Below are positions 1-8,532 of a DNA stretch of 64,000 bases, piece after piece. The stretch comes from a bacterium (GTDB lineage Bacteria > Lernaellota > Lernaellaia > Lernaellales > Lernaellaceae), in contig DAIMDW010000007.1 of the NCBI GenBank assembly GCA_036725605.1, positions 88,388 to 152,387 of the forward strand, given 5' to 3'. The translations under genes and the position numbers were made by a program. The notes beneath the pieces were generated by a model. That model made no database searches. It was not told the origin of the DNA and was given only the letters and a program-made list of their open reading frames with translations. The number at the start of each line of letters is the position of its first letter. The stretch's first letter is position 1.

Positions 1-1
1 C

Positions 2-89
2 CTATCTGTTCACCGTGAATCTGGCGACCAACGCCTACATCGAGAAGTGGCAGCACCGGACGGGCAAAAAAATATTTCCGGGGACGTAG
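2..89 (+). CDS. 3' end of an unidentified upstream gene (C-terminus ...YLFTVNLATNAYIEKWQHRTGKKIFPGT*). Its TAG stop abuts the ATG of the next gene, suggesting the same operon.
   Basis: An open frame runs to TAG at 87-89, immediately followed by ATG at 90. No recognisable domain in the 29 residues visible. Confidence 0.3.
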   Translation, partial: YLFTVNLATNAYIEKWQHRTGKKIFPGT

Positions 90-2726
90 ATGAACATTCT
101 GATGCTCCATCCGCACGACATCTACTCCAATTCGGAGCCATGGACCGTCCGCGTCACGTACCTGGCCTCCGAGTTTGTCAAACGCGGCCACAACGTGCGG
201 CTGATTTATCATTTGCTCGATCCGCGCACCAACCTCGAAGAGGCCACCGCGCGCCAGGAATATCCGTTCACGACCATCCCCGTGCATCGCTACCAGTTCG
301 CGCTGGTCGCCAAGATGCGCAGCACCGCGCAGTTCGCCGAATGGGCCGACGTCATCCATTTCCAGAAGTGTTTCCCGCAGGTGAGCGTGCCGGCGATCTG
401 GGCCGCGTACCGCCTGGGCAAGCCGGTGCACTACGACTGGGACGACTGGGAATACGGCATTTACAATTACAATCCGATGAACAAGGTCGTCGGCTGGTCG
501 ATCAGAACGTTCGAGAAGTTGCTGCCCCGGCTGGTCGACACCGTCAGCGTCGCCTCCGAGGCGCTGCGCGAAATGGCGTTGAACCTGGGCGTGCCCGACC
601 ATCGCATTTTCGAAGCGCACGTCGGCGGCGACCTCGAGCGGTTCCGGCCCGACATCGACGGCGGCCGCGTGCGCCAACTGCACAACATCGACGGCCCGAT
701 GGTTTTGTACCTCGGCCAGTTGCACGGCGCGCAGTACCTCGAGCTGTTTTTGCAATCGGCCAAACGGCTGATCGACGAGGGCTCGCCCGCGACCTTCGTG
801 GTGGTCGGCGGCGGCGAGCGCTTCGGCGAGCTGTTCCAGTTGACCGAGCACCTGGGCATCAGCCACCGCGTCGTATTCACCGGCGCGATCGACCATCACG
901 AAATTCCGCAGTACATCAACGCCGCCGACGTGGCCGTCGCCTGTTTCGAGGACACGCCGCAAACGCGTTGCAAAAGCCCGCTGAAAATTTGCGAATACAT
1001 GGCCAGCGGCGCGGCGATCGTTGCCAGCAACATGGGTGAGGTGCCGCGAATGATCGGCGACGCGGGCGTGATCGTCGCGCCGGGCAACGCCGAACAACTG
1101 GCCGCCGGCGTGGGCAAGCTGCTTGCCGACGACGACCTGCGCCGCCGTCTGGGCGCCAAAGCCCGCCTGCGCGCGGAAACAAAATACAACTGGGGCGTCA
1201 CCGCCGAGAACCTGCTGGAGGCCTATGAACTGGGCCTGCATGAGCGCCGGTGGCTGTTCTGGCAGACCGATCCGAAAAAAAAAACGATCCCGCTGACCAC
1301 GCCGCTGCCCCAACCCCGCGCGCTGCCGGTCGCTGAACCCAAGACCGAAGAACCTCCCGCGCCGCCGCCCGCCGCCCCGGAACCTCCGGCGGAAAAAGAC
1401 GCGCCCGCGGTGCCGACCTACGCGGCGATGCCCGGCGAGCAAAAATCCTCCGCCGGCGACAACGGCGGACCCGGCTCGCGTTTGCGCGCCCCGGCGTTTC
1501 TCACCCGCGTGCGTTCGTTCATCGAGGGCAACCTCGACATCGTCGGCGTACTCGACGGCCGCGAAAGCTTCGTCGGTCCGCACACGGTGCAGATCGACCC
1601 GACGAACGTGTGCAACAACGATTGTCTCGCCTGCTGGTGCAACAGCCCGTTGCTGCTCGACAAGGCGCTGCCGTCGCCCAAGCGCGACGCCGTGCTGCCG
1701 CTGCCGATCATCATCCGGCTGCTCGACGACATGATCGAAATGGGCAGCAAGGAAGTGTACATCGCCGGCGGCGGCGAGCCCTTCTGCCATCCGGACATCC
1801 TGACGATCATCGCCGAGATCAAAAAACGCGGGCTGGTGTGCAACGTGAACACCAACTTCACGCTGATCGACGACGAGGTCGTGAAGTTCCTTGCCGACCA
1901 ACGCGTCGACTACATGACCGTCTCGGTGTGGTCGGGCACGCCGGACGTGTACAGCCTGCTGCATCCGAACAAGACCGAGGAAACCTACGAGCAGATCAAG
2001 CGCAACCTGATGCGCCTCAACGAGATCAAGCACATGGTGCCGTTCATCAAGGTTTACCATGTGATCAACAATCTCAATTTTCACGAAATCAAAGAGATGG
2101 TCGATTTCGCGCTCGACACGAAAAGCGAATCGGTCGAGTTTACCGTGCTCGACACCATCCCCGGCCGCACCGACGTGCTGCTGATGAACGAAGAGCAACG
2201 CGCCTGGCTGCATCGCGAAGCGTTGCGCATCCGCGAGTGGATCGACAACGAGCATCCGCCGCGCCTGCACCTGTTCAAATACGATCAGTTCCTGCGGCGC
2301 ATCGGCGGCAGCCACACGACCACCGGCGAGCACGACATGACGATCATCGATTCGATGCCCTGCACGGTTGGCTGGCAGTTCGCGCGCATCATGGCCGACG
2401 GCGACGTCAACGGCTGCCTCAAGGCGCACCGCATCCCGCTGGGCAACTTGCACGAAACGACGTTCAAGGAACTGTGGACCAGCGACATCCAGCGCGATTG
2501 GCGCGACAAAACCAACGTGCTGGCCAAGGAAGATCCGTGGTTTGCCAACATCGGCAACGATCCGCACGCGAAGATCGGCTGTTATAAATCCTGCGACGAC
2601 CTGGGCCGCATCGAGCACCTGGTCGGCCGCTACCGCGCGATGTCCCCCACCGAACGCGCCGTGCTCAAGGGCGCGGCCTGGTGGCTTAAGTTCCGCGAAA
2701 AACAACTCGAAATGGGCGATTCGTGA
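90..2726 (+). CDS. Fusion protein: N-terminal GT4-family glycosyltransferase (GT-B fold), a Pro-rich linker, and a C-terminal radical SAM domain with a SPASM extension.
   Basis: N-terminal half resembles GT4 enzymes (…KICEYMASGAAIVASNMGEVPRMIGDAGVIVAPGN… EX7E-like region). Linker is PLPQPRALPVAEPKTEEPPAPPPAAPEPPAEK. C-terminal half carries CNNDCLAC (CX3CX2C), the GGGEPF SAM-binding motif and a Cys-rich SPASM-like tail (CTVGW…C…CYKSCDD). Continuous 878-aa frame. Confidence 0.8.
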   Translation: MNILMLHPHDIYSNSEPWTVRVTYLASEFVKRGHNVRLIYHLLDPRTNLEEATARQEYPFTTIPVHRYQFALVAKMRSTAQFAEWADVIHFQKCFPQVSVPAIWAAYRLGKPVHYDWDDWEYGIYNYNPMNKVVGWSIRTFEKLLPRLVDTVSVASEALREMALNLGVPDHRIFEAHVGGDLERFRPDIDGGRVRQLHNIDGPMVLYLGQLHGAQYLELFLQSAKRLIDEGSPATFVVVGGGERFGELFQLTEHLGISHRVVFTGAIDHHEIPQYINAADVAVACFEDTPQTRCKSPLKICEYMASGAAIVASNMGEVPRMIGDAGVIVAPGNAEQLAAGVGKLLADDDLRRRLGAKARLRAETKYNWGVTAENLLEAYELGLHERRWLFWQTDPKKKTIPLTTPLPQPRALPVAEPKTEEPPAPPPAAPEPPAEKDAPAVPTYAAMPGEQKSSAGDNGGPGSRLRAPAFLTRVRSFIEGNLDIVGVLDGRESFVGPHTVQIDPTNVCNNDCLACWCNSPLLLDKALPSPKRDAVLPLPIIIRLLDDMIEMGSKEVYIAGGGEPFCHPDILTIIAEIKKRGLVCNVNTNFTLIDDEVVKFLADQRVDYMTVSVWSGTPDVYSLLHPNKTEETYEQIKRNLMRLNEIKHMVPFIKVYHVINNLNFHEIKEMVDFALDTKSESVEFTVLDTIPGRTDVLLMNEEQRAWLHREALRIREWIDNEHPPRLHLFKYDQFLRRIGGSHTTTGEHDMTIIDSMPCTVGWQFARIMADGDVNGCLKAHRIPLGNLHETTFKELWTSDIQRDWRDKTNVLAKEDPWFANIGNDPHAKIGCYKSCDDLGRIEHLVGRYRAMSPTERAVLKGAAWWLKFREKQLEMGDS

Positions 2727-7384: not shown

Positions 7385-7401
7385 GTTCACCTCACCCCCG
7401 A

Positions 7402-8532
7402 CTATATATTGAAAGTCGCCTTGAGGGAATCGAGTAACACATTGAGCAAGTCGGTCAGGTAGAAAATCACGTACGTCAGCGTCAGTCCGACCAAGGCGCT
7501 GAAGGCGGAAAAGCGCTTCGCGTTAATCGTGCCGGGTTGCCGCGCGTAAATGTGCGCGGTGTTGCCCAGCAGCATCAGCGTCGCGCCGACCATCAGCCAC
7601 AGCAGGCTTTGCCGCATGTACAGCGAGCGTTCCCAGACGTAGATCACACCGCCGGTCATCGGCACGAGCAACGCCAGCAATTCGGGCCACACGCGCAGCA
7701 GAACGCGCGGCGGCAGATTGCGCCAGGGCGTGAACACGGCGACGCGTACGATCCACGCGCCGACGATGATCAGCGAGAGCCAAAAGATGATCCACAGCGC
7801 CATGAATTGGTAGGTGATGCCCACGTAATAGTCGCTGATTTTTTTCGCTTCCTTATACCCCTTCATCGTCGCCAAGGCTTTGAACGCATCCGACGCCTGA
7901 TGAAATTGGCGCAGCTCGATGAACGCATTGCCCAAACCCACCTGCGCCAGGAAGCCGTAACGCCCGTCGGGGAAGCGCTTGACCACGTCGCGGTAATAGG
8001 GCAGCGCCTCTTCGTTGATGTCCAGGCGCGCGTATTCCTCGGCGATCCAATACCCGACGCGATCGGCCAGGCGAAAATCCGGATACTGTTGGTAAAGATC
8101 CTTCATGCGCTTGAGCGCTTCATCGCTGCCGATTTGCGCGTACTGCCGCAGCACCTGCGTGTAGAGAAAATAGGGTTTGTCGCCCGTTTCGCGCCCGCGC
8201 GCCAACCGCCGCAGCGCGCCTTTGGCCCGCAGGGCGTTGCGCGAATCGGGAAAGCGTTCGATGACCTGCTCGTACATTTCCTGTGCGAGGTTGTATTCGC
8301 CCAGATAGCGCTCGGCGACTTCGCCCGCCTGATACAGCGCGTCGTCGGCCAGTTTGTCGTCCGGATGATTCTCGGCGAGGTCGCGCAGTTTATCGAAGGC
8401 CTGCCGCGCTTTCGTTGCGTCGCCCGAACGCGCGTCGCGCATTGCCTGGCTGTACTGCGACAACAGACTTTGCGCCGCCGCGGTTATCGGCAGCAACAGG
8501 AGCAGAATCAAAAATGCACGCCACGTTTTCAT
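7402..8532 (-). CDS. Signal-peptide protein with N-terminal TPR repeats and a C-terminal polytopic (~6 TM) membrane domain.
   Basis: N-terminus is MKTWRAFLILLLLLPITAAAQS. TPR-like repeats (YQAGEVAERYLGEYNLAQEMYEQVIERFPDS…) are followed by hydrophobic segments (FMALWIIFWLSLIIVGAWIV…, LLWLMVGATLMLLG…, ALVGLTLTYVIFYL). Confidence 0.65.
   Translation of the reverse strand: MKTWRAFLILLLLLPITAAAQSLLSQYSQAMRDARSGDATKARQAFDKLRDLAENHPDDKLADDALYQAGEVAERYLGEYNLAQEMYEQVIERFPDSRNALRAKGALRRLARGRETGDKPYFLYTQVLRQYAQIGSDEALKRMKDLYQQYPDFRLADRVGYWIAEEYARLDINEEALPYYRDVVKRFPDGRYGFLAQVGLGNAFIELRQFHQASDAFKALATMKGYKEAKKISDYYVGITYQFMALWIIFWLSLIIVGAWIVRVAVFTPWRNLPPRVLLRVWPELLALLVPMTGGVIYVWERSLYMRQSLLWLMVGATLMLLGNTAHIYARQPGTINAKRFSAFSALVGLTLTYVIFYLTDLLNVLLDSLKATFNI

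Follow-up and report, generated by a model that had tools for sequence, protein, structure and literature searches.

A glycosyltransferase–radical SAM fusion and a split carbamoyltransferase in a candidate envelope-glycan operon of the Lernaellota

Radical S-adenosylmethionine (rSAM) enzymes that are known to act on sugars use, to our knowledge, free nucleotide sugars, antibiotics and a few lipid head groups as their substrates. Here we report on a stretch of 64,000 nucleotides (hereafter 'the window') from a bacterium of the family Lernaellaceae (phylum Lernaellota; assembly GCA_036725605.1, contig DAIMDW010000007.1, positions 88,388 to 152,387 of the forward strand) and on the genes at its beginning, which encode three rSAM proteins within 8.5 kb. 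These genes fall into two separate units. Unit A, at window positions 1-6029 and about 4.7 kb upstream, is an operon of five translationally coupled genes on one strand, and its third gene joins a glycosyltransferase of family 4 (GT4) to an rSAM module in a single polypeptide; on balance we favour the view that this operon assembles and tailors a cell-envelope glycan, be it O-antigen-like, lipopolysaccharide (LPS)-core-like or otherwise lipid-linked, on the cytoplasmic side. Unit B (6033-9276) is, judged from synteny, an independent four-gene module that stands apart from the glycan operon. Envelope-glycan assembly is preferred over a ribosomally synthesised and post-translationally modified peptide (RiPP) or a diffusible metabolite on account of the glycan-assembly genes that neighbour the fusion in the loci of its relatives.

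Domains were assigned by Pfam and NCBIfam profile searches on the listed open reading frames (ORFs), and 'cutoff' denotes a model's own score threshold; L-numbers refer to homologous loci, L106 being the contig of the same genome, recovered through an exact-match look-up of gene 1. The first 86 bases of the window encode the 28 final residues of an upstream glycosyltransferase of 1075 amino acids (aa), followed by its TAG stop at 87-89 (window 1-89, plus strand; 100% identical in tblastn to the C-terminus of the L001/L106 protein), and unit A is therefore a five-gene operon, spanning L106:5317-15940, in the order methyltransferase-Wzt_C, 1075-aa glycosyltransferase, GT4-rSAM fusion, carbamoyltransferase C-domain (CarbC) and carbamoyltransferase N-domain (CarbN)-sandwich-rSAM fusion. 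Its leading gene, directly upstream and on the same strand (L106:5317-6684), encodes a 455-aa SAM methyltransferase with a C-terminal Wzt_C module (E 8.5e-11), a module that usually resides on the O-antigen ABC transporter and there reads the chain-end cap. The second gene product is GT4-like over its first ~390 aa; Pfam and PDB sequence searches returned no match for its C-terminal 675 aa (L106:7973-9997). The remaining three genes, gene 1 (90-2726, 878 aa), gene 2 (2723-3349, 208 aa, GTG start) and gene 3 (3342-6029, 895 aa), lie on the plus strand of the window, and the translational coupling described in an earlier note on this DNA is borne out at all three junctions, namely TAG-ATG at 87-92, GTGA at 2723-2726 (a 4-nucleotide overlap) and an 8-nucleotide overlap at 3342-3349.

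Gene 1 connects a GT4-type domain (GT-B fold, retaining; aa 1-385, nucleotides 90-1244) with rSAM module 1 (aa 481-878, nucleotides 1530-2726) via a linker of ~95 aa recognised by its composition (aa 386-480, nucleotides 1245-1529) that has no Pfam match. Pfam finds Glycos_transf_1 (E 2.5e-26), Radical_SAM (1e-21) and SPASM (3.2e-8) in the same chain, with Glyco_transf_4, Glyco_trans_1_4 and Glyco_trans_4_4 also above their cutoffs; the Glycos_transf_1 C-domain and Glyco_transf_4-type N-domain of retaining GT-B enzymes are both present. A profile search of the PDB ranks 2jjm/3mbo, which were deposited as group 1 family glycosyltransferases, ahead of MshA-type enzymes and PimA/PimB. The in-frame fusion of GT4 in gene 1 and of Carbam_trans_N in gene 3 to rSAM modules, claimed in the earlier note, stands on the Pfam domains, as does the proline-rich nature of the linkers (21% proline in gene 1, 28% in gene 3). 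The linker of gene 1 is poorly conserved, most of its columns lacking a consensus residue in the alignment of GT4-rSAM homologues. Neither fusion protein has a signal peptide or transmembrane segment predicted from Kyte-Doolittle hydropathy, and both should therefore act in the cytoplasm.

The rSAM module of gene 3 (module 2; aa 506-895, nucleotides 4857-6029; Radical_SAM E 1.4e-16, SPASM E 1.2e-13) is a paralogue of module 1, as had been supposed, with 37% identity over 380 aa (BLASTP, E 2e-92). The third rSAM protein is encoded convergently by gene 4 (6033-7136, minus strand, 367 aa), and the stop codons of genes 3 and 4 lie only 3 nucleotides apart; at 23% identity its kinship with the fused modules is at superfamily level only. 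All three proteins carry the CX3CX2C signature of the superfamily (aa 508-515 in gene 1, nucleotides 1611-1634, followed by a GGGEP motif; aa 541-548 in gene 3, nucleotides 4962-4985; aa 41-48 in gene 4) and exceed the PF04055 cutoff of 29.5 bits with 78.2, 61.5 and 57.7 bits, respectively.

The auxiliary cysteines set the fused modules apart from gene 4. Conservation was assessed by aligning 24 GT4-rSAM homologues and then 66 sequences of both paralogues, in which the triad cysteines and the GGG(E)P motif are invariant. Beyond CX3CX2C only four cysteines are invariant, in gene 1 C758, C776 (preceded by G771-x4), C831 and C835, with C793, C811/C812, C858 and C862 as their equivalents in module 2; they form a CX12GX4C pattern and a distal CX3C, and the CX2CX5CX3C block is absent from the fused modules across the 66-sequence alignment. 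The seven-cysteine SPASM motif, said to have been set out by Grell, Goldman and Drennan in 2015, reportedly reads CX9-15GX4C ... CX2CX5CX3C ... C. The Pfam SPASM match in the fused modules is above cutoff and covers model positions 1-54 of 67, and in a PDB profile search the C-terminal region of a fused module aligns to the twitch domain of BtrN. Since there are only four invariant auxiliary cysteines and the SPASM match ends at position 54 of 67, we take the fused modules to be twitch-like or partial SPASM modules with one predicted auxiliary cluster, and not full SPASM. What had been called three SPASM enzymes thus contracts to one, the full seven-cysteine motif being confined to gene 4.

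Foldseek searches with the fused rSAM module place SuiB, SkfB and anSME about level with BlsE (E 1e-13 to 1e-11), and the highest target-normalised TM-score, 0.74, belongs to BlsE; the predicted fold puts the module in the SPASM/twitch clade and tilts it towards the sugar-acting members. PDB sequence searches with the rSAM module alone gave marginal matches only, and none of genes 1, 3 and 4 reaches the cutoff of a curated NCBIfam rSAM family, all scoring far below. BlsE (PDB 7vob) is the cytosylglucuronate decarboxylase of blasticidin S biosynthesis (PMC3715490). It shares only 15-16% identity with the fused modules and is a stand-alone enzyme that acts on a free nucleoside within an antibiotic cluster; the fused modules, on the other hand, are tethered to a transferase among glycan-assembly genes. 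A role in anti-phage defence was also considered and rejected, the similarity found by PADLOC being of a generic pVip (viperin) level (35-55 bits).

The carbamoyltransferase of unit A is split over two genes, with the C-domain first and the N-domain second. Gene 2 encodes a stand-alone YrdC-like Carbam_trans_C domain that matches the full model (positions 1-170, E 2.1e-68) and shares 40% identity (tblastn) with the C-terminal portion of a full-length carbamoyltransferase encoded in L005; its product is predicted to be a carbamoyl-AMP-forming subunit. Gene 3 begins with the Kae1-like Carbam_trans_N domain (aa 1-378, nucleotides 3342-4475, E 1.4e-39), in which H102, H103 and H106 are invariant, in agreement with the metal-binding histidines of the N-domain in NodU, CmcH and TobZ. 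The latter enzymes are single chains that run from N- to C-domain, whereas here the C-domain is a separate 208-aa upstream ORF and the chain of the N-domain continues into a beta-sandwich and an rSAM module. Against a cutoff of 1000, the NCBIfam equivalog model for NodU gives 108.9 and 40.9 bits. The earlier note had the N-domain fusion right and implied the separate C-domain gene in its list of couplings, leaving it unnamed in its text. In TsaC/TsaD, too, the YrdC-like and Kae1-like parts are proteins of their own, and in HypF the C-domain comes before the N-domain. TobZ forms and passes on carbamoyl-AMP within one chain.

Between its N-domain and its rSAM module gene 3 holds an insert of ~130 aa, within which AlphaFold2 predicts a helix and a six-stranded beta-sandwich (aa ~400-480, nucleotides 4539-4781). 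The model of aa 1-520 has a predicted local distance difference test (pLDDT) score of 89, and over the strands (aa 414-473) the means of 10-residue blocks are 92-97. The sandwich matches only Pfam CBM_48, below threshold (E 0.16, 12.8 bits), and may, going by this model, be a carbohydrate-binding module. This CarbN-rSAM fusion is much rarer than the GT4-rSAM fusion, being represented by 30 clusters in a collection of 5.8 billion proteins, all with at least 49% identity; below this value the search scores drop to those of ordinary full-length carbamoyltransferases.

The GT4-rSAM fusion itself is represented in the same collection by more than 100 clusters at 90% identity, drawn from independent assemblies, and relatives retain the order GT4-rSAM, CarbC, CarbN-rSAM down to about 55-60% identity; the fusions are therefore neither an assembly artefact nor a chance product. 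A scan of one genome per species located relatives of the GT4/rSAM pair in 287 genomes, with Candidatus Lernaella stagnicola (L003) as the closest named relative (74% identity). The best 80 of the 287 loci, from which the taxonomic spread was read, all derive from metagenome-assembled genomes; their bacterial hosts are Lernaellota-like bins labelled 'bacterium', Myxococcota, Wallbacteria, Cloacimonadota, Omnitrophota, Desulfobacterota, Planctomycetota, 'Rickettsiales' bins and Patescibacteria, and their archaeal hosts Woesearchaeota, Methanosarcinales and Nanoarchaeota. In Omnitrophota and archaea GT4 and rSAM are mostly separate, adjacent genes. Outside the closest clade a stand-alone orthologue of module 2 comes after GT4-rSAM (for example L006:12544-13692, 47% identity), which implies that the pair of paralogues predates the fusion to the carbamoyltransferase.

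Gene neighbourhoods were counted by domain-level tblastn over 81 non-redundant loci, all-against-all clustering of ORFs having proved of limited use (single linkage merged the fusions, and at 63% GC long antisense ORFs displaced real genes). GT4 is present in 79 of the 81 loci and at least one rSAM of the fused-module family in 71, two copies of the latter being found in 38; an upstream GT4-like glycosyltransferase accompanies them in 24, a carbamoyltransferase of any form in 17, Wzt in 15, Wzm in 14 and an NAD-dependent epimerase in 12. Other recurring neighbours are GT2 and PMT_2 glycosyltransferases, sulfatases or phosphodiesterases, further epimerases and additional rSAM proteins. In Omnitrophota and archaea the system is repeatedly accompanied by a single-chain carbamoyltransferase (L047, L054, L055, L060, L062, L067, L068, L080 and L081), which makes carbamoylation look like a part of the pathway and not like a chance neighbour.

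Two arrangements illustrate the glycan context. L006 has, in order, Wzm, Wzt with its Wzt_C module, a phosphodiesterase, GT4, GT4-rSAM, rSAM, a pair of epimerases and then a multi-rSAM protein longer than 2742 aa. The cluster of four species (L005, L011, L033 and L035) is preceded by LpxI, a gene without assigned function, PAP2-LpxB, an MsbA-like transporter, PMT_2 and WaaA, that is by genes for lipid A and 3-deoxy-D-manno-octulosonic acid (Kdo) (L005:773-9628), with WaaA identity among the four down to 42%; in loci of this type there follow GT4-rSAM, CarbC, CarbN-rSAM, an epimerase, a 365-aa SPASM rSAM protein, a full carbamoyltransferase and, after it, a multi-rSAM protein longer than 2314 aa. 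The giant proteins of these two loci (L005:19835-22718, >2314 aa; L006:15989-22451, >2742 aa) both run past the end of the locus and consist of an rSAM-SPASM unit and several B12-binding rSAM units, a few genes downstream of GT4-rSAM. Radical enzymes are exceptionally abundant in these sister clusters.

Taken with these neighbours, the best reading of unit A is that it makes a modified glycan or glycolipid, one of the products envisaged in the earlier note, and subjects it to carbamoylation and radical tailoring; the glycopeptide that the note offered as another option is disfavoured by the GT4-rSAM clusters, which carry no conserved small ORF. The substrate, chemistry and order of steps that we infer are as follows. 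The large glycosyltransferase and the GT4 domain would lengthen a lipid-linked glycan on the inner side of the membrane, and the rSAM module, tethered to GT4 by its flexible linker of ~95 aa, would abstract a hydrogen from the newly added or a neighbouring sugar and rework it by decarboxylation, oxidation, dehydration or epimerisation, by analogy with BlsE, DesII and BtrN. The nearest characterised enzymes nominate decarboxylation (BlsE), deamination or oxidation (DesII) and dehydrogenation (BtrN) as candidate chemistries. The 208-aa YrdC-like subunit would make carbamoyl-AMP from carbamoyl phosphate and ATP and dock on the Kae1-like domain, which would carbamoylate the glycan while the beta-sandwich holds it; the second rSAM module may carry out another radical step, and the methyltransferase might recognise and cap the chain end by means of its Wzt_C module.

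A pathway of this kind resembles ABC transporter-dependent O-antigen synthesis. In E. coli O8/O9a the chain is made by the GT4 enzymes WbdA, WbdB and WbdC, the terminator is WbdD, and the exporter is Wzm/Wzt with a C-terminal carbohydrate-binding module. Unit A shares with such pathways the GT4 enzymes and a methyltransferase tied to a Wzt_C-type module, and Wzm/Wzt lie by GT4-rSAM homologues in about 15 of the 81 loci. It differs from them in that the module is borne by the methyltransferase and not by the transporter, and we know of no O-antigen pathway that includes rSAM enzymes or fusions of this sort.

Several observations weigh against the assignment to an envelope glycan, or restrict it. 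Wzm/Wzt or another glycan exporter is absent from the 64-kb window and the 10 kb upstream of it. Relatives occur in DPANN archaea and Patescibacteria, both of them without LPS, which implies that the target is not LPS-specific. The peptide enzymes found by Foldseek are nearly level with BlsE, and the fold alone cannot separate sugar from peptide substrates; the carbohydrate-binding role of the sandwich is proposed from a sub-threshold Pfam match and a predicted fold; and the best 80 of the 287 relatives are all from uncultured organisms. Lastly, unit B adjoins unit A in the closest relatives (L088, L091 and L092), and a functional link within this clade is possible.

The strongest rival, which we regard as unlikely, holds that unit A remodels the head group of a glycolipid: GT4 would glycosylate a membrane lipid (diacylglycerol, polyprenol, hopanoid or ether lipid) and the fused rSAM module would convert the sugar, for example into a cyclitol by ring contraction, with carbamoylation as a further decoration of the head group. 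The precedents for a glycosyltransferase that sets a sugar and an rSAM enzyme that then reworks it in place do act on lipid head groups, namely HpnI/HpnK/HpnJ in the formation of the hopanoid cyclitol ether and Cds in that of calditol, and ring contraction has been proposed for HpnI/HpnJ and Cds (PMC13459092). Unit A is likened to them by pathway logic alone; their genes are separate and serve hopanoid or glycerol dialkyl glycerol tetraether (GDGT) lipids. Neither the window nor the examined loci showed any gene for hopanoid, ether-lipid or tetraether formation. The occurrence of the family in archaea and Patescibacteria, which lack LPS, the lipid A genes that adjoin it in four species and the presence of the lipid-acting PimA and PimB among the solved GT4 relatives would all suit a glycolipid. 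On the other side, Wzm/Wzt, the Wzt_C module on the methyltransferase and the extra glycosyltransferases point to an oligo- or polysaccharide, and HpnJ belongs to a different rSAM class with a B12-binding domain. The two explanations also overlap, as a lipid-linked glycan and a glycolipid differ mainly by chain length.

In the boldest reading, GT4-rSAM would represent an undescribed glycan route that is widespread among uncultured anaerobes, mostly bacteria with some archaea, and in which one polypeptide both transfers a sugar and afterwards remodels it on its acceptor by radical chemistry; in the Lernaellota-like clade the split carbamoyltransferase, joined to a second radical module, would subsequently carbamoylate it. 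We put this forward as a tentative proposal that falls somewhat short of an even bet. The domains all stem from known superfamilies. The enzyme architecture is unprecedented: the nearest precedents (HpnI/HpnJ, Cds, BlsE and DesII) keep glycosyltransferase and rSAM enzyme separate or act on small molecules and lipid head groups. The earlier note knew of no described pathway that combines glycosyl transfer, carbamoylation and three SPASM radical enzymes, and no match was found in the literature searched or among the curated families of NCBIfam; literature searches for GT-rSAM and carbamoyltransferase-rSAM fusions, for twitch rSAM enzymes in polysaccharide synthesis and for Lernaellota returned nothing relevant.

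The covalent joining of glycosyltransferase and rSAM module implies radical chemistry on a growing surface glycan, and the fusion recurs in hundreds of uncultured lineages beside exporter or lipid A genes, often with many more rSAM proteins, including multi-rSAM proteins of more than 2300 aa. Should the proposal hold, surface glycans would contain sugars that cannot be made at the level of the nucleotide sugar, and anaerobes barred from oxygen-dependent tailoring would command a wider envelope chemistry of new sugars, C-C and C-methyl modifications and carbamates. The fusion provides an experimental handle, in that the product of the glycosyltransferase should be the substrate of the rSAM module, easing the usual problem of finding one, and the split carbamoyltransferase offers a natural test of the passage of carbamoyl-AMP between YrdC-like and Kae1-like modules. 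The GT4-rSAM family has many members of broad phylogenetic range; it is wholly uncharacterised and amenable to experiment.

Unit B consists of gene 4, a 60-aa mini-protein with one hydrophobic helix identified from alignments (7208-7390, minus strand), a 376-aa protein with a signal peptide, TPR repeats and a C-terminal membrane domain (7402-8532, minus strand; Pfam TPR_6 E 8e-12 and hydropathy), which is the first gene of the minus-strand trio, and a divergent CPBP/Rce1-like glutamic intramembrane protease of the myxosortase family (8614-9276, plus strand; Pfam Rce1-like E 3e-21). The earlier note gathered all three rSAM enzymes into one pathway, a reading that in its strongest form becomes a glyco-RiPP, with the 60-aa ORF as the precursor of a radically cross-linked, glycosylated and carbamoylated peptide. 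The top NCBIfam matches of gene 4 are indeed to the peptide maturases MftC, PqqE and GeoRSP rSAM, a homologue of the small ORF directly precedes that of gene 4 at each of 14 loci, the stop codon of the one often overlapping the start codon of the other, and units A and B are adjacent in the window as well as in L088, L091 and L092.

Synteny nevertheless separates gene 4 from the fusions and makes such a pathway very improbable. The small-ORF/SPASM module occurs in unrelated genomes with neither GT4-rSAM nor carbamoyltransferase genes nearby (L094-L098, L107 and L108), no glycan genes being found near the module in L094-L098. L107 and L108 reproduce the layout of the window, with a divergent CPBP gene, TPR protein, small ORF and rSAM (L107:2942-6194; L108:2976-6200), at 45-51% identity of the rSAM protein and with no glycan genes nearby. 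A single 1-Mb contig supplies both L005 and L089 and has the trio ~430 kb from the GT4-rSAM cluster; Lernaella (L003) and L010, conversely, carry the glycan operon and a CPBP gene without the trio there. The GT4-rSAM clusters of the 81 loci have no conserved small ORF, and the adjacency of the two units is confined to the one clade of the window's closest relatives, which speaks for a single event. The scattering in relatives that the earlier note had named as grounds for refutation consequently applies to the third rSAM gene only, the fusions staying together.

Nor is gene 4 the orthologue of the third rSAM of its relatives, as the two share only 25% identity over the N-terminal half; it is a member of a different, large family. 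The clusters of relatives (L003, L005, L011, L033, L088 and several Omnitrophota loci) carry another, 365-aa SPASM rSAM family, which follows CarbN-rSAM directly or one epimerase gene later (L003:15856-16953, L005:17046-18143, L088:8950-10047) and is absent from the whole 64-kb window.

That unit A makes a secondary metabolite, such as a small molecule of the aminoglycoside, nucleoside or pseudo-oligosaccharide type (compare BlsE of blasticidin, TobZ and GT4 enzymes of tobramycin, BtrN of butirosin), is equally improbable. The nearest solved domains do come from antibiotic pathways (BlsE, DesII and BtrN for rSAM; TobZ, VtdB and NovN for the carbamoyltransferase), but such pathways supply a disproportionate share of the solved enzymes. 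Among the called genes beside the fusions at the examined loci there was no aminotransferase or cyclitol synthase, and none that would form nucleosides, confer resistance or export small molecules; the operon is moreover syntenic across relatives with the housekeeping genes ThiI, FtsJ and DXS and spread across phyla together with polysaccharide export and lipid A genes.

As regards the function of unit B, its sequences make the maturation or processing of the mini-protein the most likely role. Gene 4 has the seven cysteines of a full SPASM domain, with CX2CX5CX3C at aa 325-338, C270-x17-C288 including GX4C, and C350/C356 downstream, and its Pfam domains are Radical_SAM, Fer4_12 and SPASM only; TIGR04085 scores 40.4 bits against a cutoff of 27. 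Its best family is MftC (TIGR03962), at 149.9 bits far under the cutoff of 265, and PqqE reaches 104.5 bits against 381. Unlike in the MftC system, MftA and MftB are absent beside gene 4, whose neighbours are the TPR membrane protein and the cysteine-free 60-aa ORF, and a PqqD-like domain was not found in Pfam searches. The mini-protein, one residue longer than the 59 aa first given for the hydrophobic micro-ORF, runs from a basic N-terminus through the invariant motif G-x-NPNSSS-[IL]-G and a single transmembrane helix to a basic tail, and contains no cysteine. It belongs to a conserved family, for which a search of 1.84 billion representatives gave 113 clusters at 50% identity (E<=1e-3), almost all of them of 50-114 aa (for example L088:7429-7617, L089:7820-8017, L107:4835-5014 and L108:4817-5011); a 646-aa match (P0458) is a LysM-repeat protein and was set aside as a chance match. 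The TPR protein lies upstream of the small ORF in 8 of the 14 loci. TPR repeats confirm one half of its description as a TPR/6-TM protein, whereas six transmembrane segments were not recovered: about four hydrophobic helices are discernible by eye in the C-terminal third, and Kyte-Doolittle hydropathy at a threshold of 1.6 gives an N-terminal signal-like segment, aa 237-270 and about aa 341-366.

The protease scores 126.3 bits against a cutoff of 100 with the NCBIfam core model Mrt_core (NF040914), and MrtP, MrtC and MrtX remain below their cutoffs. It holds the same divergent position in L088, L091, L092, L107 and L108; its link to the trio is uncertain, since L003 and L010 have the CPBP gene but lack the trio. 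Conceivably the SPASM enzyme modifies the mini-protein near NPNSSS, and the protease may then cleave it. In myxosortase sorting systems (Haft preprint 10.1101/2023.06.07.544157; PMC11980579) the described signals (MYXO-CTERM, JDVT-CTERM, Synerg-CTERM and CGP-CTERM) all have an invariant cysteine, and the preprint reports no rSAM partner (10.1101/2023.06.07.544157). Unit B is reminiscent of a combination of such a system with a SPASM maturase, having a full SPASM rSAM protein nearest to MftC, a small ORF upstream of it and a protease above the core cutoff. The mini-protein resembles a sorting signal in its motif, transmembrane helix and basic cluster, but lacks the cysteine and is a whole protein of 60 aa. 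No published description of a CPBP/TPR/mini-protein/SPASM system was found, and the preprint describes no rSAM-linked or NPNSSS system; unit B may be a second novelty, independent of unit A, in which a SPASM enzyme matures a cysteine-free mini-protein that looks like a sorting signal, and a protease of the myxosortase family cleaves it. A gingipain-type Peptidase_C25 is encoded at 40214-42430 (minus strand), and another lies a few kb from the module in L107 (L107:1-563); this proximity to a module of the unit B type is probably a coincidence.

Among the other genes of the window, a response regulator with an HD domain (9282-10304, minus strand) follows the protease. A type I phosphodiesterase (36809-38431, plus strand), 30 kb off the operon, is 41% identical to the one that lies between Wzt and GT4 in L006, and membrane glycosyltransferases of the PMT_2 type are found at 21284-23329 (plus strand) and 45502-47862 (minus strand). 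Between the ThiI-like and FtsJ-like genes, which adjoin in L003 and L088, the window has two ORFs (11454-14722, minus strand), the first with matches to AAA_23/AAA_27 (in L106) and the pair resembling SbcC/SbcD by eye only; this segment looks like a local insertion relative to the relatives.

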